Notes under the pieces: model-generated
The model's input: only the letters and a program-made list of their open reading frames with translations
Database searches by the model: none
Told to the model about the DNA's origin: nothing
In this document: positions 548 to 14,502 of the stretch, piece after piece
Layout of the letters: the number at the start of each line of letters is the position of its first letter
How positions within the stretch are numbered: position 1 is the first letter of the stretch
Assembly (NCBI GenBank): GCA_031256775.1
Contig: JAIRPX010000154.1
Location: forward strand, 1-19,111
Origin: Dysgonamonadaceae bacterium
GTDB taxonomy: Bacteria > Bacteroidota > Bacteroidia > Bacteroidales > Azobacteroidaceae
Length of the DNA stretch: 19,111 nt
Direction of reading: 5' to 3'
Position numbers and translations under genes: made by a program

Positions 548-3500
548 TTAGTTTACAACTATTTTTGACATATATCTTTCCGTACCGCTCTTCACTTCTA
601 TGATGTATGTTCCTTTGAGGTCAATAGTTTGTTTGACAAAGCCAGCATTTATCTTCTGTTCCGATACTTTTGCCCCGGAAACAGTATAAATATTGACTAC
701 TCCATCCGAAAATTTACCGGTCGACTTTACCGTAAAAGGCTGTCCTGCTTTTCCCGGATTGGGATAAATGCTTATTCCCTGTTCGCCGTCCGGAAACTTC
801 AGGCCGGTTGTTGTTTTTGCAGCAATATTGATATCCAAATGGTTTGTTACCTTTACGGTCAGGCTATATTTCTCCGGTACTACAGCCGCATCACTTAAAA
901 TCGGGATTACTGTGTCGCCGTCGACAGTTACGGTCAATTCGTTCGCATCGGGTGCTAATGTGAAGTCAATCGTATAATCGCTGTCTTCGTCTTCCAAGTG
1001 AACGCCTGCCTGTGAGGTAATTACCTTGTCGTTTGTTGTCACATTCACTTTGAATTTCAATGGAGGAGGCACGGGCAACTGTTCTCCGGACGACTTGATG
1101 CCGGCATTAAACTCAGCTACCTGTATGGTATTTCCGCTTGACTTGTCCCAATCTTCAATATCCACGCGGATATAACGGTACGACACTTCCGGAAATTCAA
1201 TGACAATTTCATTGTCGTTCTTCGCATAATCGATTACATAATGTTCATAAACCGGCGTGAATACCGTGTTATCGCCCGATCCGTAAACGGATATCTGCCT
1301 TGCCCTGATCCATGCGGAGGTATTGCCTGCATTGCGATGCAAATAACTTACGTAATTGAACATTTGTTCGCCTTGCATGTCAATCGTGAACGAAGGTATG
1401 TAACCAGTCGGCCCGGTTACATTTCCTACTGTTTTCCCCGGCTTAATAAATGAGAATGCAGAGGTTGTATTCCCGTCAATGATGTTCACCGGATTATCGC
1501 CGCCTACGGTAGCATCCGGCACGCCTTCAATGGAAGTGGTAATTGTCCAGTTTGTTCTGTCAAGCGGATTAGCCGTTGATACTTCCGGACTTGAAGAAGT
1601 AATGCCGCGCAAGGCTAAGGGCATCCATGCAGGACGGGCTTGTCCCGTAACCAAAGCAAGCTCTTCGGCCGTGCGGTTGATGTCAGCCAGATCAAGAATC
1701 TCGCCTTTTGTCTTTGCATCAGCCATTTTTGCCCGCAGCTTTGCTTTCACTTCGGCATCCGTTACACGTATTCCCCAGATATTAAAGAACTCGGTCAAAT
1801 CGTAACCGGATACCTGCGAGGCTTTCCAAATCAGATAAGAGCGCCGTTCTTCAGCTCCGCCGCCGGTAACTTTTTCTTCACGCACTACACGGTGCAGGTT
1901 TTTGTAGAAATCGTCGCTGAAAATTAAGAATAATTGTTCCCAAACCATGAAACGCAACTCGTCGCGGTTGAAACCGGTAATGCTTTGCAGCAGTTCGGAA
2001 TCCATGTCATATATCCGCTTTGAAAACGGGAGCTTCAGGTAGGTGTTTTGCGCCCCTTCCCACCGTTCGGCGGAAGTACGGTTATAGCCTGCGCCCTGAA
2101 TATTCCGTTCTGTCACATACGAATAAATATTAACGGTCGATTCGGTTGCCAGGTTAATCATATACGCAGGTTGCTGGTGCTGGTGTCCCAGCTCGTGACC
2201 CAGCATCCATGAGTTGTTGCTTGCAGTTCCCAGCTTTGTCAGGTAACGGGCGCGGCTGCCGTGGGGATAACCGGTATAACCGGCCGAACTGGCATGGGGG
2301 TTTTCGCTGGTATTTTCCGTCAGAAGGAATCTCACTTCGCCGGTTTTCAGGCGGTGATGCAAGGGATTCGGGTCGCCGTTGTCCATACCGCTTATTTCGT
2401 CTTCCTTAGCGAGCAGGGTATGTATGGACTCCATCCATTCGTCCTTATTTTCGTCGATGGAGAATTGCAGGGCAGCCTCGCGCGTAGCCGCCGCCACAAT
2501 ATAATCGGACTGGTAGAGGACGTCGGGCGTTTGATAGTTGTTCATCATGCTTGCAAACTCAGCATGTGGAGTAACTCCGTATATATAGCGCGGCGCGCGC
2601 ACATGTTCGCTGCCGTCTGTAAAAGTAATTCTTGCCCGTCCTTTCGGATCGGCATTTCCGTCATTGACAAAACTCAGCCAGATGAGGCCGCCCAAATGAT
2701 TGGTAACTGTATTCACCCCGGCTGTCAGCGTGGTTGATGTGCCGGTATTCCGTCCGTCCACATTGAATCCCAGCGTTCCTACGGTAAGAACCGGCATCAC
2801 ATTCTGATCTGCCGCGGCAAGGATTTCGACGTTTACTTCCACTTTTTTCCCGGCTTCCACATAGAAGCCTGTGGGTTGCCTGTCGTATTTTTTATGTCCC
2901 TGACACAAGCGCATCCGTTCTTTTTCAGCGCTGTTAATCTGATTGATTTCGATTGCCGAAGGATAAGGCGTAGTAATATTAACTTGTTCCTTCGTTGCCG
3001 AGATGGAAAGATTCATGTCTGCGGTAACGTTTGCGATGCGTATCTTGTCGCCTTCTATTGTTGCGCCGCCGGTTACAACCGGATTTTCGTAATCGGTTTT
3101 CAATCTGAAGATAGCTGTAAACTCGCTGCCGTTGTCTATTCGGGCAAAATAGGGTGTAACATTTTCGATGCCTTCACCCGTACTTACGATGACGCTATGT
3201 TTAACCATTCCGGGAGGTAAATCGGTCTTTCCCAGTCCAAATTCGGCGATTTGCATGGTGCTGCCGCTTCCGGAGCCTGTTCCCGGATAATCAGGATGCC
3301 GGCTGCTGTAAATATCGCTCCACATTACAAGCCTAATTCTGACATACCGGCCGGTAGATTGCGGTACGTCTATTTTATATGTATTCGGATCGGTAACTTC
3401 GGGGGTACTTGTAGTATATCCGGCTATATTCGGAATCCATACGATATCGGTATTAATTTTAGTGAAGTTTGTACCATCGTTGCTGATTTCAATATCAATA

Positions 3501-3853
3501 CCATATACACGCAGATATTTGTAGCTATTACCACCGCGGTGACGCCATTTGATATAATCAAACGTTTGCGCCGATTGCATATCCACGGTAAATGAAGGTA
3601 TGAAATCAGAAGGTTGTTTGGGTACGGCGCCGTAATTCTTACCCGGTTTTACCAGCGAAAGGAATGTCGCGGCATTGTCGTCAAACATGTGTTCCGGCAA
3701 TCCTGTCGTGCCGTCGACTACATAGCCGTAGTTTGTTGCAGTTTGCGTAGTTACCGCCCAATTCGTACGGTCAATGTCTGTTTCGGTTGCTGTCTGCGCG
3801 GTCATTGCTATTGTTAATAACAACGACGAAAAAAATAAGGTTAATCGTTTCAT
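548..3853 (-). CDS. Secreted M60-like (enhancin-type) zinc metallopeptidase, predicted mucin-type glycoprotease, with two discoidin (F5/8 type C)-like modules and a T9SS C-terminal sorting domain
   Basis: The 1101-aa ORF starts with ATG and carries an SPI-type signal peptide (MKRLTLFFSSLLLTIAMTAQ) with no lipobox Cys. Residues ~27-209 form a discoidin-like module (RTNW...GLPEHMFDD...YIKWRHR...YLRVYGIDIEISNDGTNF...RYVRIRL...STMQIAEFGLGK) followed by a GTGSGSGS linker. The M60 catalytic core contains the gluzincin motif HELGH at residues 553-557 with a downstream Glu (HELGHQHQQPAYMINLATE). A second discoidin-like module spans residues ~765-916. The last ~75 aa (ISIYPNPGKAGQPFTVKSTGKFSDGVVNIYTVSGAKVSEQKINAGFVKQTIDLKGTYIIEVKSGTERYMSKIVVN) match the Por/T9SS CTD pattern. 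Confidence 0.8.
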   Translation of the reverse strand: MKRLTLFFSSLLLTIAMTAQTATETDIDRTNWAVTTQTATNYGYVVDGTTGLPEHMFDDNAATFLSLVKPGKNYGAVPKQPSDFIPSFTVDMQSAQTFDYIKWRHRGGNSYKYLRVYGIDIEISNDGTNFTKINTDIVWIPNIAGYTTSTPEVTDPNTYKIDVPQSTGRYVRIRLVMWSDIYSSRHPDYPGTGSGSGSTMQIAEFGLGKTDLPPGMVKHSVIVSTGEGIENVTPYFARIDNGSEFTAIFRLKTDYENPVVTGGATIEGDKIRIANVTADMNLSISATKEQVNITTPYPSAIEINQINSAEKERMRLCQGHKKYDRQPTGFYVEAGKKVEVNVEILAAADQNVMPVLTVGTLGFNVDGRNTGTSTTLTAGVNTVTNHLGGLIWLSFVNDGNADPKGRARITFTDGSEHVRAPRYIYGVTPHAEFASMMNNYQTPDVLYQSDYIVAAATREAALQFSIDENKDEWMESIHTLLAKEDEISGMDNGDPNPLHHRLKTGEVRFLLTENTSENPHASSAGYTGYPHGSRARYLTKLGTASNNSWMLGHELGHQHQQPAYMINLATESTVNIYSYVTERNIQGAGYNRTSAERWEGAQNTYLKLPFSKRIYDMDSELLQSITGFNRDELRFMVWEQLFLIFSDDFYKNLHRVVREEKVTGGGAEERRSYLIWKASQVSGYDLTEFFNIWGIRVTDAEVKAKLRAKMADAKTKGEILDLADINRTAEELALVTGQARPAWMPLALRGITSSSPEVSTANPLDRTNWTITTSIEGVPDATVGGDNPVNIIDGNTTSAFSFIKPGKTVGNVTGPTGYIPSFTIDMQGEQMFNYVSYLHRNAGNTSAWIRARQISVYGSGDNTVFTPVYEHYVIDYAKNDNEIVIEFPEVSYRYIRVDIEDWDKSSGNTIQVAEFNAGIKSSGEQLPVPPPLKFKVNVTTNDKVITSQAGVHLEDEDSDYTIDFTLAPDANELTVTVDGDTVIPILSDAAVVPEKYSLTVKVTNHLDINIAAKTTTGLKFPDGEQGISIYPNPGKAGQPFTVKSTGKFSDGVVNIYTVSGAKVSEQKINAGFVKQTIDLKGTYIIEVKSGTERYMSKIVVN
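551..778 (-). other. Coding segment for the T9SS (Por secretion) C-terminal sorting domain of the M60-like peptidase
   Basis: The C-terminal ~76 residues contain the YPNP motif, an IYTVSGAKV motif (cf. IYDLSGRKV-type), a GTYIIEV motif (cf. GVYFVKV-type) and a basic C-terminal tail. This is the characteristic beta-sandwich CTD of T9SS cargo. Confidence 0.65.
2183..2197 (-). other. HELGH zinc-binding motif codons of the M60-like catalytic domain
   Basis: The reverse complement of 2183..2197 is CAC GAG CTG GGA CAC, which encodes H-E-L-G-H. A Glu lies 14 residues downstream of the second His (LATE), the gluzincin third-ligand position. Confidence 0.7.
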
Positions 3854-3928: not shown

Positions 3929-5245
3929 CTATTCAATAACTATTTTTCCTAATCCGAATTCGGCTATTTGCATTGTATTGCCGCTCAAGGCGCCACTTCC
4001 GGGATAGTTGGGATGCTGATACTTGTCGGGAGCATAGTTCCTGCTCTGTACAACCAAATTCACCTTGACATAACGGTAGGACGATTTGGTTATCGGAATT
4101 ACATAGGGCGCATCTTCTACGGAAGTGACAGACCCGACATACGAAACTTTTTGCGGAATCCAAACGATATCGGCATTAGACCCGGCAGGCTCGGCAGGAG
4201 GTATTACGGTAAAATTAGTTCCGTCGTTGCTGCCTTCCACGATGACGCCATATACCCGCAGGTAATTGTAGGTATTAGATCCTACGCTTCCATTCGCGTT
4301 GCTGTAAGTTCCATTGCGGTGACTCCACTTGATGTATTCAAACTCCTGCGCTGTTTTCATATCAACGATAAACGAGGGAGGGGTGGATTCTGCCGGAGGA
4401 GCTACTCCGTTGATAGAGCCGCCCGGTTTCACCAGTGACAGGTAGGAACCGGCTTGTTCGTCAAACATGTGTTCGGGCAATCCTGTTACGGGAGCGGCCT
4501 GTGTACCGCCGTCCCACATATAGCCGTAATCGTTGTGGGTTTGCGTGGTTACCGTCCAGCCGGAGCGGTCTATGTCCACATTTCTTATTACCAGATCGAG
4601 CACAGTAACGGTAACGTCCCTTGAAAGGTTGCTGCCGTCGGCGGTTCTAATTGTAATCGTTGTGGAACCTACGTTTACGGGACTTACAATACCGGTTGCA
4701 GTAACAGTTGCAATCGATGCATCGTTGGAGGTATAAGTGACAGTTTTATCCCATGTATCCGCGGGCGTCAGACTTACACAGGCGCCAAGGTCGAATGTAT
4801 TTCCTCCGATTTTCAGTTCAAAGTTGCTGCCGGCAGCCGTTACGTTAATGGCTGTGGCTTTTACCATGTGGTCGATAATATTCACTATGAATCTTGTACT
4901 AACTCCCGATCCGTCGGTAGCGCCGACAATTAGCGTGTCGGTACCGAAAGTCTTCGGCTTGAGCAGTCCCGCTTCGGTTACTTCCATCAAGTCGGGACGC
5001 ATGTTGGAGAATGTTACCTTTGGGTTTTTTGCATTTTTCGGCAATATCTCGACATTCAGCTGTAATTCCGTGTTATCTTTCAGAGAAATCTGCATGGAGG
5101 GCTTTCCCGCGCTCACATAGACCGCTTCTTTAATGCCGATTGCGGTAACTTTGCCATCGTTTTCCGGTTCAAATCCCTGAGGTTCGCAGCCGGGCATCAT
5201 CACAGTAATAATTACCAGAAGTGATAAATATATAATCTTTTTCAT
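3929..5245 (-). CDS. Cell-surface lipoprotein with two Big_2 (bacterial Ig-like) domains and a C-terminal discoidin-like (F5/8 type C / DUF5000-like) module; SusE/F-position surface glycan-binding protein candidate
   Basis: The 438-aa ORF starts with ATG and has a lipoprotein-type signal (MKKIIYLSLLVIITVMMPGC) followed by an acidic stretch (CEPQGFEPENDGK). Two Ig-like repeats follow (VTAIGIKEAVYVS... and ATAINVTAAGS...). The C-terminal module RSGWTVTTQTHNDYGYMWDGG...GLPEHMFDEQAGSYLSLVKPGG...YIKWSHRNG...YLRVYGVIVEGSNDGTNFTVI...RYVKVNLVVQS...NTMQIAEFGLGK is about 50-55% identical to the N-terminal module of the adjacent peptidase. The gene lies immediately downstream of susD. Confidence 0.75.
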   Translation of the reverse strand: MKKIIYLSLLVIITVMMPGCEPQGFEPENDGKVTAIGIKEAVYVSAGKPSMQISLKDNTELQLNVEILPKNAKNPKVTFSNMRPDLMEVTEAGLLKPKTFGTDTLIVGATDGSGVSTRFIVNIIDHMVKATAINVTAAGSNFELKIGGNTFDLGACVSLTPADTWDKTVTYTSNDASIATVTATGIVSPVNVGSTTITIRTADGSNLSRDVTVTVLDLVIRNVDIDRSGWTVTTQTHNDYGYMWDGGTQAAPVTGLPEHMFDEQAGSYLSLVKPGGSINGVAPPAESTPPSFIVDMKTAQEFEYIKWSHRNGTYSNANGSVGSNTYNYLRVYGVIVEGSNDGTNFTVIPPAEPAGSNADIVWIPQKVSYVGSVTSVEDAPYVIPITKSSYRYVKVNLVVQSRNYAPDKYQHPNYPGSGALSGNTMQIAEFGLGKIVIE

Positions 5246-5270: not shown

Positions 5271-7271
5271 TTAACGTTTTATATCCTGCCATCCGGGGCT
5301 TTGCGTCAGGTTTTTATTCAATTCGAGTTCCTGAAGGGGAATCGGATTGTAATAATATCTGTCGTCCCATTTCACGACGCCATTGCTTACATTCGGGCTT
5401 TTCGGATAGCCGACGATGAAGCCTTCGCTATCTACGAATACATCTGAATTGAGCGTAGCTTTCGGCGCATTTTTCGCCTTGCTTGTATTTGTGCCGTCGT
5501 ACAGTTTTTGTTTTTCTGCCGTAAATTTCATGCCTCTTATGGGCTTTTCAATAAACCTTCCGGCTTTCCAGCGTACCAAATCTTCGCGGCGAAGGCCTTC
5601 CATTGCCATTTCTATGCGGCGTTCGCGGCGTATTTCGCGAAGAATGGGACTCGGAACGTATCCCGCATATTGCCGGTAAAGATTATCCAAGTGAGTATCG
5701 GCAGGAATGTTCTGCAAAGTCAGCTTGCTGTTGGGATATTTGGAAAAATCAAATCCTGCGCGTTGACGCAAGACATTGACGGTCTTGTCCAAATCCTCAT
5801 TTGTAATGGTTCCCAGTTCCGCTTTGGCTTCGGCATACATCAACAAGGCTTCCCCATAACGGAAAATCAAGGCTGTCTGCGAACCACTGGTAGTAGATCC
5901 GTTGTCTATCTGCTCGTTTGTCCAGTGCTTGATAAACATATAGCCGGTAACGCAAGGGCCGGCTGTCGGCGTTTGATTGGCAGTCGGACAGTTGTATGTA
6001 ATTTCCGGATACTTAAGCCCTTGCAGCGCCTGATTGATTGCGCCCCCGTTATCGTCCCTGTTAAAGACAGTGACATATTCGCCCGGCTTCACTACGGTTT
6101 GCCGCAGGCGCGGGTCGCGGTTGTCAAGCTCTCGCCAGTCGTCGCCGTCATAGCCTTTGAAAAGGGGGCTTGAGGCAGCCGGCAGGCCATCAATACACAA
6201 GTATTCGTCTATCAAGTCTTTGGTGGCTCCCTTACAATAGCGTCCGCTTGCATTTCCGCGGTTCATATTGAAGTATCGCGAGGTTCCGTGCCCCAGCTTG
6301 GAGCCGTCATATACCCGTGCGAGGATGGCTTCCTTGTGGTCACCACCCGTCATGCCGTTCAGCTTGAAGAGATGCCAGTACGGGTCGTTTCCTACTTCGG
6401 CGCTCGGTACATTATATAACTGATACTTGTTTGTCGCCATAATCGCTTCGCAGGCTGTTGCACATTCTTCAAGGAACCTGTTGGCCGTGTTTTGCAAGCC
6501 CAATTCGGTATGATACTTTCGGAAAGTTCCTTCAAACAGGCAGAAACGCGCTTTCAGGAAGTTTGCCATGTCGCGGTTGATGCGTCCTGTTGGTCCGCCT
6601 GTGTTGTTCATATACTGCACGGCGTAGTCGAGGCATTTCATCACGCTATCCACAAGTTGCGTTCTTGGCGTACGCGGGGAATACAATTCGGGAGAATTGG
6701 TATTCAAATCTTTTTCCAGCCAAGGCGCTTCTCCGAAGGCGACTATCTTCCAGTAATAATCCCAAGCCTTAAAGAAATAAGCCTCGGCGGCGTATTTGTT
6801 CAGGATGTCGGGGCTGCTCACCGAGCCTTCCGCTTCGCGGTAATGGCTCAGGAAATAGTTGATTGTACGCAGGTTACCCCACCGCCAGCCGGTATTGTTG
6901 CCATCGTCGAGCGAAGTTACCGCGCTGGCCGGCACTTGCCATGTACCTTGCATGCGGTTAACAATATCGCCCGAAGTATTGGAAAATCCAATGGCGTTAT
7001 CTGTGAAAATGTCGCCGTATATGATATAACTTCCGCGCGTAATGTAGAACGGTGGAGCATAACTGTAAGCATTGCCTGTCTGATGCCCCATGCAATATAC
7101 ATTGTATAATTGATTAAGGTACAAAGGCAAGTCGCCTTCATTTTTTAGAAAAACACCTTCGGCAAGCGTATTATAAGGATCTTGCTGCATAAAATCGTCG
7201 TTACACGAGATCAGGGTAAATCCTGCGCATATACAAACGATTGTAATATATTTTTTTATTATTTTTTTCAT
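5271..7271 (-). CDS. susD: SusD/RagB-family nutrient-binding outer membrane lipoprotein
   Basis: The 666-aa ORF starts with ATG 20 bp downstream of the SusC-like gene. Its lipoprotein signal has the lipobox and an acidic export signal (GFTLISCNDDFMQQDP). It is aromatic-rich and sits in the canonical SusC-SusD pair position. Confidence 0.85.
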   Translation of the reverse strand: MKKIIKKYITIVCICAGFTLISCNDDFMQQDPYNTLAEGVFLKNEGDLPLYLNQLYNVYCMGHQTGNAYSYAPPFYITRGSYIIYGDIFTDNAIGFSNTSGDIVNRMQGTWQVPASAVTSLDDGNNTGWRWGNLRTINYFLSHYREAEGSVSSPDILNKYAAEAYFFKAWDYYWKIVAFGEAPWLEKDLNTNSPELYSPRTPRTQLVDSVMKCLDYAVQYMNNTGGPTGRINRDMANFLKARFCLFEGTFRKYHTELGLQNTANRFLEECATACEAIMATNKYQLYNVPSAEVGNDPYWHLFKLNGMTGGDHKEAILARVYDGSKLGHGTSRYFNMNRGNASGRYCKGATKDLIDEYLCIDGLPAASSPLFKGYDGDDWRELDNRDPRLRQTVVKPGEYVTVFNRDDNGGAINQALQGLKYPEITYNCPTANQTPTAGPCVTGYMFIKHWTNEQIDNGSTTSGSQTALIFRYGEALLMYAEAKAELGTITNEDLDKTVNVLRQRAGFDFSKYPNSKLTLQNIPADTHLDNLYRQYAGYVPSPILREIRRERRIEMAMEGLRREDLVRWKAGRFIEKPIRGMKFTAEKQKLYDGTNTSKAKNAPKATLNSDVFVDSEGFIVGYPKSPNVSNGVVKWDDRYYYNPIPLQELELNKNLTQSPGWQDIKR

Positions 7272-7291: not shown

Positions 7292-10200
7292 TTAAAATGT
7301 AATCTGAGCACCAACGGCAATTGTTCTCTTTTGTGGATAGGCGTCCGAAATTTGATCGGGGTCAAAAATAGACGGGATTTCCGTAATTTCAAACAAGTTG
7401 TAACCCGACAGGGTAAAGCGCAGTTTTTCAACATGCAGTCTTTTTATCAGAGAAGCAGGCACAGTATAACCCAATACAGCCTGTTTCATACGCAGATAAG
7501 CTCCGTTGACCAGCCATCCTGTCTGTACGGCAGGTCCTCCGGCGGTAGAGCTATAACGGGGAAACTTCGCGTCGATCTGGTCAGGCTTCCACGAACGTTC
7601 GTACATCCACCGGCTGCCGGCGTTGTTTGTTCCGCCGCCCCAATAAGTGGTGCTGCCGATCCACAGGTCGCGCTTGGCGACGCCCTGGAACAACATGCTG
7701 AGGTCGAAACCTTTCCACGAAGCGCCCAGCGTAAGGCCAAACTTGTAACGCGGCGTATTGTTTCCTATGATGCGCCGGTCACCCGGATCGTCGGCCGTAT
7801 TGGAGCCGGAGTTGATAATTCCGTCGCCGTTCAGGTCTTTCCGCCACGCATCGCCGGGCCAGACATTGCCACCCTGATAAGGACCGTAGAATTTATAGCT
7901 GTTGCCATCGACTATAAGATCTTCCATTTGCAGAATGCCTCCGGTTTCGTATCCCCAGATTTCGCCAACGTTCATACCTTCATAGTAAAGATAATCTCCC
8001 AGCGTTTTTATGGGGTTGGAAGGATAACTCAGCACTTTGGCCATAGCATCCGACAAAACGAGGCCTGCATTGTACTGCAATCCGTTGGCGAGCTTGTCTT
8101 TCCATTCCAGGCTGAGTTCCCATCCTTTTGAGCGAAGCGCCCCGCTATTTTCACGCGGAGCCGAAACGCCCATCAAATTGGGATATGCAACGCTTCCTTC
8201 CACCAGGATATCGGTGGTTTTGCGTTCAAATACGTCTAAAGAAAAGTTCAGGCGGTTTTGAAAGAACCCAGCGTCCAGCCCAATGTTGGTGGTTGCCGCT
8301 TTTTGCCAGGTCAAGGTAGGCGACACAAGGGACGGCGCGTTTACCGTATTGCTCCAGCTTCCGTCAATCCAGTAATTGGAAGCCGATGAGCTCATTGTCG
8401 CCTGATAGGGATAATAAGAATCGGGCTGGCTACCCAATTTACCATACGATCCCCTTATTTTAAGATTTGAAAGCCAATTTTTCGAAAAATCCATAAAACC
8501 TTCTTCCGAGATTCTCCATCCGACAGAGAAAGAGGGGAAGAAAAAGTATCGTCCGTTAGGTGTAAAACGGCTGCTACCGTCGTAGCGACCATTGACTTCA
8601 AATAAATATTTCCCTGCGAAATTATAATTGATCCGGCCGAAAGCTGCTCTTCCGGTGCGTTTTTGCGCCGAAGTTTCTATTGTATTTAAAGTGGGATCTT
8701 CTGTTGCGCTTGGATTTAAAATATTGGGTGAAAGTAAATTACGTAGATTAAGCGCCGACTGATCGTATTCTACGTATTCCTGATTATACCCGACAATAGC
8801 CGAAAGCGTATGTTTTTCCTTGAATGTTTTGTTGAAATCGGCATACACATTGATCTGGTAATTGTCGGTAACGTCTTTTTCAAATCTTCCCCTGTTTTCC
8901 TTGTATTCCTGTTGCTCGCTTACGGGCGTCCATGTATAGGTGAGATAGTAATGCGAAGGATCGACGCGCCTCAATGTACGTCCTTGCGGCGAATAGGAAA
9001 GATCTGCCTTGAGCTTCAGGATTTTCGGGATAACGATAAATTCCGGCGACACGGCCAAAACCGTAGTCCACCGCTTGGTTACCGTCCGGTTGCCGTAATT
9101 CAGCCATGCAAGATAATTATCCGTCCACTGCTCGCCGCTCGGATCGGTCTGCAAAGTCTTTATGGGCATATTGATATTCTTGTCGGCGTCCTGTTTCAAT
9201 ATCGACCAGATAGTACCCTTATAACTCGGCACGTAAGGTTCTTCGTAGCTGTAACGGTTATAATTGACTTTTGTTTCCACATTAAACCAATCGGTTACTT
9301 TTGCATTAAAGCGGGTAGCGATGTTGTAGCGGTTGTATTGGTCTTCGCCGATTTTATACATGCCGTCTTGCGTCATGTAACCCAGCGAAAGATGATAGGC
9401 GATTTTATCCGATCCTCCCGACAGGCTCACGTTATGCTTTTGTGTAGGCGCGTAGTCGCGAACCACTTCTTTGTAAGGATTCATATTTCCAACCCATACG
9501 ATTGAGTTTCCGTTCATTATATACCGGTTTTCCGGATTGGTTGGATCTGCCATGTATTTTTCGATCGCTTCCATCTTTCTCTTGTCCAAATCGCTTGGCT
9601 GATTGTTGACAGAGGTCCACTGGGTATTTTGCATCACGAAGCGTTGAATTTCATAAGCGTTCATAATGTCGGGGAGGGCGGAGGGCTTGTCATACGAAAG
9701 ATCATAATTGTAGCTGATTTTTCCCTTTTGGTTGAATTTACCCGCTTTGGTTGTAATCAACACGACTCCCCATGTTGCTTTTGTTCCGTAAATGGCCGAA
9801 GCTGAAGCATCCTTAATTACACTCATGCTTTCAACATCGTTCGGATTCATCTGGTTCAGCAATGTGGAGGTCATTTCCACTCCATCCACTAAAATTAACG
9901 GTTCGCCGTTTTTAAGTTCCCATCTGGAGTCTGTCGTATTGTAGTCGATAGAGGTAGTTCCACGAATATTAAAACTGGGTACCGTGTTGGGCTTCCCGTC
10001 GCTCATGGAAATATTCAGGTTAGGAACAACGCCTTGTAAGGCTTGGCCGATATTGGCCACGGGGCGGTTTTCAAATGTTTCGGATCCAACAGAGGAAACG
10101 GCTCCGGTCAGGTTTACTTTTTTTTGTGTCTGGAAGCCAACGACCACCACATCGTCCAATAATTTTGAATCTTCCGCAAGTTTTACGTTAATTGTTGTTT

Positions 10201-10495
10201 GCGTTCCCGCTTTGTACTCTTGCGTAGCATATCCGATATACGAAAATACCAGAACAGTGTTTGGACCGTCGGCAGTGATACTGTATTTACCGTCAATATC
10301 GCTTACCGTTCCTTTTGTTGTGTTTTTAAGAGTAACACTGACTCCTACGAGAGGTTCGCTGCTCATGTCTGTTACTGTTCCTGTAATTGTATTCTGCGCC
10401 CTGCAAAGGCAACAGACACAAAAACCGAAAAAGAGTAACAGAAAGATTTTGCATTTGAATCTTTTTCTAAAATTTTCGATAGTACAATGTTTCAT
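7292..10495 (-). CDS. susC: SusC/RagA-family TonB-dependent outer membrane transporter
   Basis: The ORF-track start at 10501 is a TTG. The first in-frame ATG is at 10495 (MKHCTIENFRKRFKCKIFLLLFFGFCVCCLCRAQ signal), so the protein is ~1067 aa. A carboxypeptidase-regulatory-like N-domain (NTITGTVTDMSSEPLVGVSVTLKNTTKGTVSDIDGKYSI) is followed by a TonB-box region (DDVVVVGFQTQ), a plug and a long beta-barrel ending in the aromatic C-terminus AQITF. There is no STN/N-terminal signalling extension. Confidence 0.9.
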   Translation of the reverse strand: MKHCTIENFRKRFKCKIFLLLFFGFCVCCLCRAQNTITGTVTDMSSEPLVGVSVTLKNTTKGTVSDIDGKYSITADGPNTVLVFSYIGYATQEYKAGTQTTINVKLAEDSKLLDDVVVVGFQTQKKVNLTGAVSSVGSETFENRPVANIGQALQGVVPNLNISMSDGKPNTVPSFNIRGTTSIDYNTTDSRWELKNGEPLILVDGVEMTSTLLNQMNPNDVESMSVIKDASASAIYGTKATWGVVLITTKAGKFNQKGKISYNYDLSYDKPSALPDIMNAYEIQRFVMQNTQWTSVNNQPSDLDKRKMEAIEKYMADPTNPENRYIMNGNSIVWVGNMNPYKEVVRDYAPTQKHNVSLSGGSDKIAYHLSLGYMTQDGMYKIGEDQYNRYNIATRFNAKVTDWFNVETKVNYNRYSYEEPYVPSYKGTIWSILKQDADKNINMPIKTLQTDPSGEQWTDNYLAWLNYGNRTVTKRWTTVLAVSPEFIVIPKILKLKADLSYSPQGRTLRRVDPSHYYLTYTWTPVSEQQEYKENRGRFEKDVTDNYQINVYADFNKTFKEKHTLSAIVGYNQEYVEYDQSALNLRNLLSPNILNPSATEDPTLNTIETSAQKRTGRAAFGRINYNFAGKYLFEVNGRYDGSSRFTPNGRYFFFPSFSVGWRISEEGFMDFSKNWLSNLKIRGSYGKLGSQPDSYYPYQATMSSSASNYWIDGSWSNTVNAPSLVSPTLTWQKAATTNIGLDAGFFQNRLNFSLDVFERKTTDILVEGSVAYPNLMGVSAPRENSGALRSKGWELSLEWKDKLANGLQYNAGLVLSDAMAKVLSYPSNPIKTLGDYLYYEGMNVGEIWGYETGGILQMEDLIVDGNSYKFYGPYQGGNVWPGDAWRKDLNGDGIINSGSNTADDPGDRRIIGNNTPRYKFGLTLGASWKGFDLSMLFQGVAKRDLWIGSTTYWGGGTNNAGSRWMYERSWKPDQIDAKFPRYSSTAGGPAVQTGWLVNGAYLRMKQAVLGYTVPASLIKRLHVEKLRFTLSGYNLFEITEIPSIFDPDQISDAYPQKRTIAVGAQITF

Positions 10496-10506
10496 AAACA
10501 ATAGAT

Positions 10507-11649
10507 TTAAAATTTATAATATGATTGATAAATTTCACTTCCTGCCAGCAAGAATGCGCCCACGCCGTAAGCAGCAGTCATATTTGCCGTCACTTTTTTA
10601 GGATCTGCACCGACAGGCTGCACCCATCCGAGTTTCCCGTTTTTATCTATGGCAGAAACCAGAGCTGTCCACGATTTTTTCACGACAGGTGTATATTTTT
10701 TTTTATCCAGCAAGTCCTTGTTGACACCGTAAGCCAATGCGTAGGTAATAAGCGCCGTAGCGCTGGTTTCAGGTGCCGGGTAGCTCGCAGGATCCAGCAG
10801 GCTTGCATGCCAAAAACCATCTTTATCCTGCAATGCCGCCAATTGCGAAACAAACTCTTTGAACAGATTTTCGTAAAAAGGCCGGTACTCTGAGTTTTCA
10901 GGAAGCAGTTTCAAAATATTTACTAATCCTGCGGCCACCCAGCCGTTGCCTCTTCCCCAAAAGACTTTTTCCCCATTCGCTTCTTTTTTGTTAAAATAGC
11001 TGCTATCTCTAAAGAACAGTTTCTTTTTTCGGTCATATAAAAAATTATATGTTCTTTTAAATTCTCTGTCCATAAATTGAAGATATTCGTCGTTTCCTTC
11101 GATTTTTGTCAGATGTGCATAAACAGGGGGAGCCATGAACAAAGCGTCGCACCATGTCCATGATTGTTTGTTGGATATGCTCATTGCGGAATCGGGGGGA
11201 TTACTGATGATCCAGTCTGCTCTTTCCTTTGTGGAACAGAGCATTTTATTCTCTTTGTAGAGATTGAACATATTCAGGTAAAATTGTCCGATACAGAGTT
11301 CGTCGGCATGATAGAGTCCGTATATAGGGTATTTAAGAAAATTGGCGGGAATATTCCAGTTACTTGTTAAACCGATGTTTTCCAGCCACTGAAAACAGGA
11401 TGAATCGTCGGCTATTTTTGCCCATTCAAACATTCCCAAGTATAAAACGGCATTTGTCCATGAATCTATTCCATAATCATGCAGATTATCGGTTGTAGAG
11501 TACTTGAAGTTGTCGATTTGCCAGTCGGCGACTTTTTTCATTGAAGATTTTATATCCGGTAACTTTAATGCCGACCTGCTCCAACAGGGAAAAACAGATA
11601 TTATTCCCCAGAAAAGCAAAAAAATGACAATGTTCTTGTGTCTTTTCAT
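10507..11649 (-). CDS. Glyco_hydro_88-superfamily (GH88/GH105) unsaturated glucuronyl / rhamnogalacturonyl hydrolase-like enzyme with a signal peptide; first gene of the locus
   Basis: The 380-aa ORF starts with ATG and has an N-terminal signal (MKRHKNIVIFLLFWGIISVFPCWS). It shows (alpha/alpha)6-type motifs shared by the UGL/YteR families (DSWTNAVLYLGMFEW, YHADELCIGQFYL, WTWCDALFMAPPVYAHL, GRGNGWVAAGL). Its stop codon lies 11 nt before the SusC ATG. Confidence 0.65.
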   Translation of the reverse strand: MKRHKNIVIFLLFWGIISVFPCWSRSALKLPDIKSSMKKVADWQIDNFKYSTTDNLHDYGIDSWTNAVLYLGMFEWAKIADDSSCFQWLENIGLTSNWNIPANFLKYPIYGLYHADELCIGQFYLNMFNLYKENKMLCSTKERADWIISNPPDSAMSISNKQSWTWCDALFMAPPVYAHLTKIEGNDEYLQFMDREFKRTYNFLYDRKKKLFFRDSSYFNKKEANGEKVFWGRGNGWVAAGLVNILKLLPENSEYRPFYENLFKEFVSQLAALQDKDGFWHASLLDPASYPAPETSATALITYALAYGVNKDLLDKKKYTPVVKKSWTALVSAIDKNGKLGWVQPVGADPKKVTANMTAAYGVGAFLLAGSEIYQSYYKF

Positions 11650-11687
11650 ATAGTATATTTTGTTTTTTTTAAGTTTTTAAGGTGCAA

Positions 11688-11695
11688 CAAAAATA
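11688..11695 (-). promoter_or_regulatory. Candidate Bacteroides-type -7 promoter element (TAnnTTTG) for the GH88/105-susC-susD-lipoprotein-M60-GH2 operon
   Basis: The reverse complement of caaaaata (11688-11695) is TATTTTTG, matching TAnnTTTG. It lies ~39 nt upstream of the ATG at 11649. No well-spaced -33 TTTG was found. Confidence 0.35.
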
Positions 11696-11700
11696 TGTAT

Positions 11701-11767
11701 TTTGGTTTTCAAGTTAATATTTTTTGCATTGCTATTATTGCCTTATTTTTTGCTGTAATTGCCAAAT
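11701..11767. repeat. Copy 1 of a ~67-bp near-perfect direct repeat in the locus upstream region
   Basis: Copy 1 reads tttggttttcaagttaatattttttgcattgctattattgccttattttttgctgtaattgccaaat. It differs from the copy at 11821-11887 at only ~2-3 positions. Each copy contains two internal ATTTTTTGC(N)ATTGC sub-motifs. Confidence 0.85.
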
Positions 11768-11820
11768 AGCTAATATTCAGTATGTTATATAGTGTATGAA
11801 TTGCAAAAAAAAGTATAAGG

Positions 11821-11887
11821 TTCGGTTTTCAAGTTAATATTTTTTGCATTGCTATTATTGCTTTATTTTTTGCTGTAATTGCCAAAT
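11821..11887. repeat. Copy 2 of the ~67-bp direct repeat, 120-bp period, separated from copy 1 by a 53-bp spacer
   Basis: Copy 2 reads ttcggttttcaagttaatattttttgcattgctattattgctttattttttgctgtaattgccaaat. The flanks diverge immediately outside the repeat. Confidence 0.85.
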
Positions 11888-12197
11888 GGTTGTGGTATAG
11901 ATAATTGTGATATGATATTATGAAGAAGAAAAGCTGTCTCAACTCAGTTATTAAACAAATCTTTGTCACCAAAATAGTTACATCAAGAAATCGTATGTTT
12001 TGAAAAACCGGACAAATCGTGTATATATCTTATGGTATAGCTTCCTTAAATGGCGACAACATCCAAACTTTTCACTATTCTGTTTATTGAAAAGAAGGTG
12101 TTCAAAAACCATTTGTTTTTCAAATCAACCGTAACCTTTAATGTTTACTGCAATAAGCTTGTACTTTACTACTTGGTCTCGGCTTTCGACTTTCATC

Positions 12198-12218
12198 AAA
12201 AAGCGTTTTCTAAACGCC
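12198..12218 (-). terminator. Candidate rho-independent terminator for the NfeD-flotillin operon
   Basis: On the minus strand the sequence reads GGCGTTTagaAAACGC followed by TTTTTG. This is a 6-7 bp stem with a 3-nt loop and a U5 tract. It lies ~185 nt downstream of the flotillin stop at 12402. Confidence 0.3.
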
Positions 12219-12401
12219 ATCTTTCGAATGTAAAGGGGTGATGAAAGGCAATCCAATGGCAAAACAAAACGATTGTTTATTAATAAAAGTGCTATTTTTT
12301 AGGGAAGAATTTGGATATGAATTTAAGAAAGTTTTCACAAAGGAGCAAAAGTGCAACGTATTCATCGTCCATCTTTACTCCTTTGTGGAATAAGGCAAAA
12401 C

Positions 12402-13976
12402 TTACGCGAGATTATTATTGTCCGAATGTTTTCCTTTCAATGTGTTAGGGATTCCGGGAATGGTTTTCATGATATCAGTAACAGGAGCGATGGACGATAT
12501 CAAACCGGTAAGCAGGTTTGTCAAAGTACCTCCTTGAGTGGTATCCATGACATTGACATTACCTAAATTGATGTGTTCAAAAGCTTTCACTTGTTCGGCG
12601 GCGATATCTTTCCATTGATCGACCATTTTCCATTGGATTGCTACTTGCGGATTGTTTTCTGCCACTCTCACCATAGCTTCAAACCCTTCGGCTTGCGCCA
12701 ATAACGATGCTTTTTCGGCGGCGGCTTTTGCCAGTCCTTGTTGTTCGATCACTTTTGCGTGAGCCAATCCTTCGGCGGTAATAGCTTCGCCTTTTCCTTT
12801 ACCTTCGACAGCAACGGCGTCTGCGCGTCCTTGCGCTTCTATACGTTGTTTATTTGCGTTTGCTTCTGCTTCTTTTTCCAATTTCAATTGGTAGGCTTGG
12901 GCGTCGATCAATTTTTGTTGTTTGGCTATTTCTGCCGGAACAATTTGCTCTGCTTTCAAGGCGGCTTCTGTTCGTTTGGCTCTTGCTTCTTCGGCTTCTT
13001 TACGCGCTAATTCTTTGTTTTTTTCTATTTCGGCTTTAGCTCTTTCGTCAGCTGATAAGGCCAAACTTTGCGATTCGGCTTTAATTACTTCCAGTTCGGC
13101 ATTGGAGACTGTTATTTTTTTAGTTGCTTCGATTTCTCCGACACGGGCTTCGGAATCATATTTTGCAATATTGATATCCCTGTTTTTTTTAGCTTCAGCT
13201 ACGCGGGAATCACGTTCGGATTCGGCCTGGGCAACCGAAATACTCTGATCTCTTTGAGCGTTGGCGATAGCAATTAGCTCTTCTTTTTTTGTTGCGGCCA
13301 CTGTTGCATTTTTAATTTTCATCTGTTCGGCTACTTGGGTTTCTCCTTCGCGTTCGGCTGTCGAAATTTCCACATTAGCCTGATTGATCGCTTTGGCCTG
13401 GTCCTTTTTACCCAAAGCGACAATATATCCGGCTTCATCGCGGATATCAGTTATGTTAATGTTAATTAAATGCAACCCTATTTTGCGCAATTCGGTATCA
13501 ATAAGGCCTTTTGCTTTAAGTAAAAATTCATCTCTGTCAGCGTTTAGCTTTTCAATAGTCATATCGGCAATAATAGTTCTCATTTGACCGTAAACGATAT
13601 CTTTGACCAAGTCTTCAATTTCACCCCGTCCTAAGCCCAGAATGCGCTCTGCTGCTGCCTGCATCACATCCTGTTCGGTGCTGATACCTACGGTAACGGT
13701 GGTTGGTACATCCACTCTGATGTTTTGTGAAGACAACGCTTTTTGCAGGTTGCATTCAAACTGCAAAGGTTTCAACGACATGTAAGCATATCCCTGTAAG
13801 ACGGGAATAACAAACGCCGCTCCGCCCTGAATGCACTTGGATGATTTATTACCTCCTGTTTTACCATAGATTACCAAGATTTCATCCGATTTGCATTTTC
13901 TGAATCGGGATAAAATACCGATAAGCGAAAATACAATAAGCAAAACCAATACTCCAATAAAAATAATTAAATTCAT
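12402..13976 (-). CDS. Flotillin-family membrane protein (SPFH/band-7 domain; FloT/YqiK-like)
   Basis: The 524-aa ORF starts with ATG and has an N-terminal TM helix (MNLIIFIGVLVLLIVFSLIGIL). An SPFH domain (ILVIYGKTGG...GGAAFVIPVLQ...) is followed by a long Ala/Glu/Lys/Gln-rich coiled-coil region (EAEEARAKRTEAALKAEQ...) typical of the flotillin domain. A compositionally simple tail follows. Confidence 0.9.
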   Translation of the reverse strand: MNLIIFIGVLVLLIVFSLIGILSRFRKCKSDEILVIYGKTGGNKSSKCIQGGAAFVIPVLQGYAYMSLKPLQFECNLQKALSSQNIRVDVPTTVTVGISTEQDVMQAAAERILGLGRGEIEDLVKDIVYGQMRTIIADMTIEKLNADRDEFLLKAKGLIDTELRKIGLHLININITDIRDEAGYIVALGKKDQAKAINQANVEISTAEREGETQVAEQMKIKNATVAATKKEELIAIANAQRDQSISVAQAESERDSRVAEAKKNRDINIAKYDSEARVGEIEATKKITVSNAELEVIKAESQSLALSADERAKAEIEKNKELARKEAEEARAKRTEAALKAEQIVPAEIAKQQKLIDAQAYQLKLEKEAEANANKQRIEAQGRADAVAVEGKGKGEAITAEGLAHAKVIEQQGLAKAAAEKASLLAQAEGFEAMVRVAENNPQVAIQWKMVDQWKDIAAEQVKAFEHINLGNVNVMDTTQGGTLTNLLTGLISSIAPVTDIMKTIPGIPNTLKGKHSDNNNLA

Positions 13977-13995: not shown

Positions 13996-14502
13996 TTAAA
14001 TAATAAAATCAATCGGATAAACCAATTGGCGTGTACCGGACACTTTTATTTTTTGTCCCTTTTCGAAATGAATTTCTTCAGGACACTCTAAAGTAATAGT
14101 TACCGGCCTGCCTTCCAGAGTGACAAATACTTCTCCTACTTTTCGCTTATCGTCCCAAAAATATACTTCAGCTTCCATCTCTTTTATTTCATGAGTATAT
14201 TTCATATTTTGTTGCAATTTGTCATAGACCCATTTATACAAGAAGTATAATACAACGACAAAAATGATACCCACAAAGACTCCCATTGTGGTCGAAAAAA
14301 AAGTAACTTCGTGCATTAGAGTTAATTCAAGCGAAAAACCAATAGTAAAATGCAGCAGACCTTTGAAAGAAAGAATATCGCCCCACAGAAATCCACTATC
14401 CATATCCGAATCTATATCGAAATTGCCGAAAAACAGAGATCCTATAGCGTTGATAATAAACAAAATCCCTGATACAATCAAGACTATCTCATACCATGTC
14501 AT
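13996..14502 (-). CDS. NfeD-like short membrane protein (YuaF/YqiJ-type partner of flotillin)
   Basis: The 168-aa ORF starts with ATG and has N-terminal TM helices. Its C-terminus is OB-fold-like (GEVFVTLEGRPVTITLECPEEIHFEKGQKIKVSGTRQLV). It lies 19 bp upstream of the flotillin gene, the conserved nfeD-floT arrangement. Confidence 0.7.
   Translation of the reverse strand: MTWYEIVLIVSGILFIINAIGSLFFGNFDIDSDMDSGFLWGDILSFKGLLHFTIGFSLELTLMHEVTFFSTTMGVFVGIIFVVVLYFLYKWVYDKLQQNMKYTHEIKEMEAEVYFWDDKRKVGEVFVTLEGRPVTITLECPEEIHFEKGQKIKVSGTRQLVYPIDFII

Follow-up and report, generated by a model that had tools for sequence, protein, structure and literature searches.

An apparently duplicated promoter module with putative regulator sites upstream of a PUL operon in an uncultured Bacteroidia bacterium

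Upstream of a PUL operon in a 19,111-bp JGI metagenome contig (called the window, i.e., the whole stretch of DNA analyzed here), we found two near-identical direct repeats that are probably tandem promoter modules, with two full candidate sites for a trans-encoded activator, an HTCS being our best guess. At the heart of each repeat is an element that would be an unannotated regulator site, duplicated along with its core promoter. The feature is fairly ordinary, in that its architecture is of a known kind and the duplication was seen in this lineage only, and it reveals no new kind of mechanism. What it provides is a precise and testable cis-element for a PUL of uncultured Bacteroidia (14-bp half-sites, a 21-bp period, and a distance of 33 nt from the -7 box), together with a natural comparison, offered by the relatives, of one-site and two-site versions of the same promoter. 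It could help pair orphan HTCS/AraC-type regulators with PULs and could show how the duplication of a promoter module tunes glycan-utilization genes.

All substantial ORFs of the window lie on the minus strand (Table 1). The PUL operon starts with a GH88/GH105 hydrolase gene, and the genes on its upstream side are housekeeping genes (flotillin/Band7, the 168-aa membrane protein, LpxB, SurE, and an M19/C26 fusion). A terminator-like hairpin followed by a T-run separates the flotillin gene from the repeats and would shield the PUL promoter from transcription arriving from upstream. Both repeats therefore fall within the 752-nt intergenic region that immediately precedes the first PUL gene. As noted in the preliminary description, no regulator gene is nearby: Pfam searches found none in the 19-kb window and none in the 11 kb of L012.

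Table 1. Features of the promoter region and of the surrounding genes (window coordinates)
Feature	Position	Strand	Basis or remark
Proximal 64-nt core	11704..11767	-	Conserved element + first 25 nt of the 33-nt spacer
Proximal conserved element, 39 nt, ATTTGGCAATTACAGCAAAAAATAAGGCAATAATAGCAA	11729..11767	-	nhmmer E = 7.8e-10; alignment A1
Proximal half-site 1, GGCAATTACAGCAA	11750..11763	-	21-bp self-similarity
Proximal half-site 2, GGCAATAATAGCAA	11729..11742	-	21-bp self-similarity
Proximal spacer, 33 nt, element to -7 box	11696..11728	-	Relatives' alignment
Proximal -7 box, TATTTTTG, fits TAnnTTTG	11688..11695	-	Consensus quoted in PMC7366714
Distal 64-nt core	11824..11887	-	63/64 identical to the proximal core
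Distal conserved element, 39 nt	11849..11887	-	nhmmer E = 1.9e-9
Distal half-site 1, GGCAATTACAGCAA	11870..11883	-	21-bp self-similarity
Distal half-site 2, AGCAATAATAGCAA	11849..11862	-	21-bp self-similarity
Distal -7-like box, TACTTTTT	11808..11815	-	Exactly 33 nt past the distal element
GH88/GH105 unsaturated uronyl hydrolase, 380 aa, signal peptide; first gene of the operon	10507..11649	-	Pfam PF07470, E = 4.6e-91
susC-like	7292-10501	-	Pfam
susD-like	5271-7271	-	Pfam
Big_2 protein	3929-5245	-	Pfam
M60-like peptidase, F5/8 type C domains, T9SS sorting tail	548-3853	-	Pfam
GH2-like gene	starts below 547	-	
Terminator-like hairpin + T-run downstream of the flotillin gene	12202..12218	-	
Flotillin/Band7	12402-13976	-	
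168-aa multi-pass membrane protein	13996-14502	-	No Pfam match

We then looked into the repeat pair itself. The two 64-nt cores are identical at 63 positions and are spaced by 120 bp from start to start, the sole mismatch being a C at 11742 versus a T at 11862, and none of 200 dinucleotide-preserving shuffles yielded a comparable match. A BLAST of the window against itself gave E = 6e-31, and a repeat search stretched the pair to 82 nt with 90% identity (11686-11767 and 11806-11887). The preliminary description had reported near-identical repeats of 67 nt located 120 bp apart, and we confirmed this, with 2 mismatches over that span (11701-11767 versus 11821-11887). It had also placed them 6 bp from the -7 box, which is essentially right, since the box lies 5 nt from position 11701 and 8 nt from the core. 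Its statement that the flanks are unrelated holds only roughly: on the promoter side, the copies agree at 11/18 of the nucleotides adjoining the core, with 7 mismatches, and both flanks show weak similarity to the matching flanks in relatives. The segment between the two cores spans 56 nt; a resemblance of this segment to the 5' UTR (ATAYACTATAT) was judged not significant (p roughly 0.1 by hand estimate). Tandem Repeats Finder returned trivial arrays of 8 to 9 nt only and missed the 120-bp duplication because the sequence outside the core is too diverged. The repeats are direct and not inverted, as previously described, and the only inverted matches that the repeat search found near them were trivial A/T runs of 14 nt. 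With no inverted repeats flanking the promoter, we rejected an inverton.

Each core combines a 39-nt element, which is conserved in relatives, with most of the spacer that leads to the -7 box. The proximal element lies at about -47 to -85 relative to the inferred TSS and contains two half-sites, GGCAATTACAGCAA and GGCAATAATAGCAA, that are 12/14 identical and 7 nt apart. The single core difference between the copies falls on the first G of proximal half-site 2 (11742). Over the 7 nonredundant instances of the element, self-similarity peaked at a shift of 21 nt, with 48% matches versus 31% expected (z about 6, a value inflated because the sequences share ancestry), and z was ≤4 for every other shift. 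The diverged element of locus L009 still reads ACAGCAA-N14-ACAGCAA. The pattern AGCAA-N16-AGCAA was confined to GH88 promoters in the 112 kb covered by the window and the fetched loci, and it was found in 6/7 other lineages, L003 having GGCAA and L006 having AACAA / AGTAA at this place.

The proximal -7 box ends 38 nt upstream of the ATG at 11649 and fits TAnnTTTG, the -7 consensus of the Bacteroidetes primary sigma factor as quoted in PMC7366714. By position and sequence, this box would be the main promoter of the operon, with a TSS near 11682. The distal box deviates from TAnnTTTG in its final base, a T instead of a G. The canonical spacing between a -33 TTTG and the -7 box is about 19 to 21 nt, and none of the nine modules had a TTTG this far upstream of its -7 box. 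The -33 motif is weakly conserved across Bacteroidetes (PMC7366714). The proximal promoter thus resembles a sigma-ABfr promoter in having TATTTTTG about 38 nt before the ATG and differs from it in lacking the -33 TTTG, the distal one differing in addition by its terminal T.

We found one copy of the element in each of seven other GH88 loci (L002, L003, L004, L006, L007, L008, and L009; L005 is the same locus as L003, from Bacteroidia bacterium MS502-39, and was counted once). The GH88 proteins of these loci are about 70 to 77% identical to that of the window, which has no nearer homologue, and MS502-39 is the closest named genome. Matches to the element in the relatives had nhmmer E values of 5e-9 to 7e-6, L009 alone being an independent detection, as eight of these instances had gone into building the profile. 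The element reads TTTGaCAtTTACAGCAAAAAATAAAGCAAAAATAGCAA in the three closest relatives and is diverged yet recognizable in the four remoter ones. In 6/7 relatives, exactly 33 nt separate its end from the -7 box, the gap in L006 being 43 nt, i.e., one helical turn longer. The boxes found at 33 nt are TACATTTG, TACTTTTG (twice, in L003 and L004), TAGTTTTG, and TATGTTTG, plus CAAATTTG in L007, the only relative without TAnnTTTG at the equivalent position. The spacer kept its length but is poorly conserved in sequence between relatives (alignment A1). In L009, the GH88 gene has kept the element although no co-oriented susCD pair follows it, and the element therefore belongs to the GH88 promoter. 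Two earlier suggestions, that the repeats are tandem sites for a trans-acting regulator and that they are a duplicated promoter module, thus gain support jointly, since the element of ~39 nt precedes the -7 box by a fixed 33 nt in relatives and since, in the window, a -7 box or a box with one mismatch to it follows each copy at this same distance.

Among the window and the seven relatives, two copies of the element were found in the window only. About 250 nt of noncoding DNA upstream of the element in L002 contain no second copy, and in L003 the end of the neighboring gene lies 40 nt upstream of the element; the contigs of L004 and L008 begin about 20 and 50 nt upstream of it, so that a second copy there would be beyond reach. 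The distal box, TACTTTTT, is one substitution away from TACTTTTG of L003 and L004. The 16 nt past the distal core match the promoters of relatives at 11/16 positions in a fixed register (p about 0.006 each), and the 5' flanks of both copies weakly resemble the 5' flanks of relatives. Because of the 33-nt spacing of the distal box, this downstream match, and the likeness of the 5' flanks, a head-to-tail duplication in this lineage seems to have involved the entire module of about 120 bp.

The cores are far more alike than the adjacent flanks (1/64 versus 7/18 mismatches), and near-identity also covers 25 nt of a spacer that varies between species. Gene conversion, or a second and more recent copying, would therefore explain the cores better than purifying selection alone. 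The distal copy retains the ancestral A (AAAGCAA, as in relatives), where the proximal one has a G. A further idea, which we regard as quite improbable, is a copy-number rheostat, in which the 120-bp module would be gained and lost by slippage or RecA while conversion keeps the cores identical; the contig break seen in an independent sample (described below) and the sharp boundary between core and flank are compatible with ongoing recombination. If true, the rheostat would produce subpopulations that differ in the number of activator sites (one, two, or more) and in PUL expression, and it would be a form of heritable promoter variation in Bacteroidia that proceeds without inversion.

We next compared the element with known regulator sites. 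For the HTCS (AraC-type) and SusR-like regulators of Bacteroides, comparative genomics has predicted direct-repeat sites that average 21 bp apart, for example pairs of 14-bp sites separated by 6 bp or of 16-bp sites separated by 5 bp, and these lie upstream of TAnnTTTG (PMC3878776). DNase footprints of the HTCS BT4124 covered sites of ~39 bp with two half-sites about 21 bp apart; the promoter of bt4114 (susC) holds two such full sites, and that of bt4108 shows a similar two-half-site pattern (PMC13292587). The bt4108 gene is annotated as a rhamnogalacturonyl hydrolase (PMC3878776). Our element shares with the HTCS sites the ~39-bp block, the half-site period of ~21 bp, and the location upstream of the TAnnTTTG of a PUL operon; the window shares with bt4114 the presence of two full sites in one promoter, and a GH88/GH105-type hydrolase gene (bt4108) is among the BT4124 targets.

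Several differences stand beside these likenesses. The BT4124 half-site is roughly AAAACAAAWAWTAC, compared with GGCAATWAYAGCAA in the window; both are A-rich, but they align poorly in register, and we rejected a sequence match to the BT4124 (Rgu-1) half-site and kept it as a lead only. The bt4114 footprints, at -126 to -88 and -75 to -34 from the start codon, are about 50 bp apart center to center, whereas the two full sites of the window are near-identical, 120 bp apart, and apparently derived from a module duplication. Many predicted HTCS sites end about 20 to 24 nt from the -7 box (alignment range, roughly 20 to 65), versus 33 nt here, and the window has no adjacent HTCS gene. Since the half-site sequence differs from that of BT4124, we describe the element as one that appears to work like an HTCS site and not as a member of that class. 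SusR is also comparable in that direct repeats precede the -7 box of a sus-like operon, but the repeats in the alignments differ in sequence and spacing (PMC3878776), and we saw no susR-like gene in the window.

A candidate regulator of the conserved element is an HTCS of MS502-39 whose gene lies 6.7 kb upstream of the GH88 ortholog (L013, 1-3313), with Reg_prop / Y_Y_Y, HisKA, HATPase_c, Response_reg, and HTH_AraC domains. This gene adjoins a different susCD pair, the promoter of which is devoid of the motif. We also observed a run of about 13 G in the N-terminal coding region of a susC-like gene next to the HTCS gene (L013, about 8449-8462, minus strand), which could be a tract for slipped-strand phase variation or a sequencing or assembly artifact.

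We propose that the module consists of the ~39-nt element (two 14-bp half-sites with a 21-bp period), the 33-nt spacer, and a sigma-ABfr -7 box. Most likely, a dimeric, trans-encoded activator would bind the two half-sites at about -47 to -85; an AraC-type HTCS or another AraC-type protein encoded elsewhere is our best guess, and it would recruit RNA polymerase to the proximal -7 box when the glycan of the PUL is sensed. With its two full sites, the duplicated promoter would offer four half-sites. The proximal module, with its perfect -7 box, would be the working promoter, and the distal module would add a second activator site and possibly a weak upstream start from the weakened TACTTTTT. The 120-bp offset corresponds to about 11.4 helical turns and puts the distal site out of phase with the proximal promoter, which makes simple in-phase class I activation from the distal site unlikely and leaves cooperative recruitment or an independent weak promoter as alternatives. 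Class I activators tolerate a shift of one helical turn, and by analogy with the class I sites and UP elements of E. coli sigma-70 promoters, the element of the window is centered near -65 and the site of one relative has moved by +10 bp, one helical turn. This likeness is inferred across a different sigma factor and a different phylum.

The same conservation could be read without any regulator, in line with the duplicated UP-like elements that the preliminary description also offered. Phased A-tracts might contact the alpha subunit of RNA polymerase or bend the DNA, as a factor-independent UP-like element that the duplication would double in effect. The element is indeed A-rich, with A5-A6 tracts about 10 to 12 nt apart, it stands at a fixed distance upstream of the core promoter, and the gene of a cognate regulator is not nearby. 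We nevertheless find this unlikely: the element has invariant G/C columns, namely C in the first AGCAA and G in the next (alignment A1, C37 and G57), a pair of AGCAA at exactly 21 bp suits base-specific recognition by a dimer, and a block from -47 to -85 exceeds the usual range of E. coli UP elements, -40 to -60. We know of no characterization of UP elements for Bacteroidetes sigma-ABfr. The bound protein might instead be a repressor, or a regulator with a dual function, by which the PUL is kept off until its substrate is present. Operator pairs about 120 bp apart can support looping, as the two sites here could, and the conservation evidence is the same as for an activator. A GntR-type repressor is on record for a flavobacterial PUL (PMC7641319). 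The location of the site argues against this reading, which we hold to be decidedly unlikely, for it is wholly upstream of the -7 box and of a would-be -33 and overlaps neither. Moreover, relatives manage with one site, and direct repeats of 21 bp are typical of AraC-type activators, whereas operators of the LacI and GntR types are usually palindromic.

The remaining alternatives to an activator site concern the direction of the promoter and the nature of the repeat. The plus strand of the block reads TATTTTTG in relatives and TATTATTG in the window, and L002, L003, and L004 have a perfect opposite-strand TAnnTTTG inside the block, which, with the about 500 nt of noncoding DNA to the right of the distal copy, might indicate a divergent plus-strand promoter or a small transcript. 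The plus-strand box of the window has a mismatch, though, the fixed spacing is to the minus-strand -7 box, and the small ORFs in 11888-12401 are not conserved. In L003, the neighboring gene shares the strand of GH88 and its end is only 40 nt away; a divergent transcript there would merely run antisense into this beta-lactamase-like gene. A small transcript finds no Rfam match or folding signal (z, +0.5 to +0.9) either, and we judge this reading very improbable. Assembly itself might also have produced the pair, as the source is a metagenome contig: the assembler would have joined two strain variants of a single-copy promoter in series, and a strain-level branch would also break a contig of another assembly at the repeat, which is what we observed. 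The 56-nt segment between the cores would then have to bridge the 3' end of one variant and the 5' start of the other via k-mers present in the reads, yet its ends are only weakly like promoter flanks, and the differences between the copies, present in the core as well as in both flanks, are those expected of a true duplication that has diverged. Such an artifact is in our view very unlikely. That the repeats are fragments of a decayed mobile element or of a dispersed repeat family is almost certainly wrong, with nothing to commend it beyond their being repeated: an exact 25-mer occurs once in species-representative genomes, at the ortholog, the 28-mer and the composite pattern gave no real match in the metagenome collection (see below), and there are no terminal inverted repeats and no transposase.

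The contig of another assembly is a Logan contig (L001, from SRR14710896) whose GH88 protein is 100% identical to ours and which starts within the repeat. The two copies share the initial 30 nt of this contig, and the proximal copy can first be told from the distal one at base 31. Such a start is compatible with a branch in the assembly graph caused by a real repeat, or with a strain variant; Logan contigs come from k=31 graphs, in which a branch would give the start seen in L001. The contig shows that both continuations exist in the second sample, the linkage of both copies on one molecule coming from the JGI contig alone. We found no independent contig across the distal copy, as the flotillin protein had no record and the contig of the 168-aa neighbor stops inside the flotillin gene.

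We also searched for the element beyond the locus. The exact 25-mer had one match in 185,579 species-representative genomes, in the orthologous locus of MS502-39, and the exact 28-mer had none in a metagenome contig collection, which evidently does not hold the source sample or those of L002 and L004. A relaxed pattern (element, N33, -7 box) gave two matches in metagenome contigs, both rejected as chance because they lie inside unrelated ORFs. Within the 112 kb of the window and loci, the element was absent upstream of other operons, including the other susC promoters; the search for a regulon covered these 112 kb and the exact-word genome scans, which weak sites may escape. Recurrence upstream of other PULs, proposed earlier as a check for a regulon motif, thus gave no positive result, and no wider motif emerges because the element was found solely at GH88 promoters. 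Rfam had nothing in the whole window at the gathering score and nothing in 11600-12450 at E ≤ 1, and the repeat with its putative long leader folded no better than shuffles on both strands (z, +0.5 to +0.9); we accordingly rejected a structured RNA (riboswitch, leader, or sRNA). A sigma-54 reading of TGGCA-N5-GCA was also rejected, by eye, since the motif is GG-N8-GC instead of GG-N10-GC and the GG is missing in L002 and L004.

Additional observations concern the neighboring sequences. The AT-rich DNA that separates the distal repeat from the flotillin stop codon (11888-12401, about 500 nt) contains no conserved ORF, no Rfam match, and no similarity to relatives; small ORFs in it, such as one of 27 aa at 11920-12003 (MKKKSC...), were discarded, being neither conserved nor matched to a promoter. 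A 17-nt inverted repeat (12333-12349 / 12374-12390) lies just past the flotillin stop. Directly upstream of the element, a heptamer microsatellite (TCATAAT / CATAATT)n occurs in L006 (about 600-630 of the upstream region of this locus) and in L008 (1-30), the contig of L008 ending within it.

The JGI annotation (P0001) starts the GH88 gene at an internal Met, giving 344 aa. The 380-aa ORF from 11649 gains a typical signal peptide, MKRHKNIVIFLLFWGIISVFPCWS, and is also the form predicted in the Logan contig, which makes the longer start the probable one. The gene of the 168-aa protein lies directly upstream of that of flotillin, and by position the two may correspond to an NfeD-flotillin gene pair. 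The M60-like (enhancin-type) peptidase carries two F5/8 type C domains and a T9SS C-terminal sorting domain, and its presence with the GH88/GH105 and GH2-like genes suggests that the substrate of the PUL is a glycoprotein or of mucin type, and not plain pectin.
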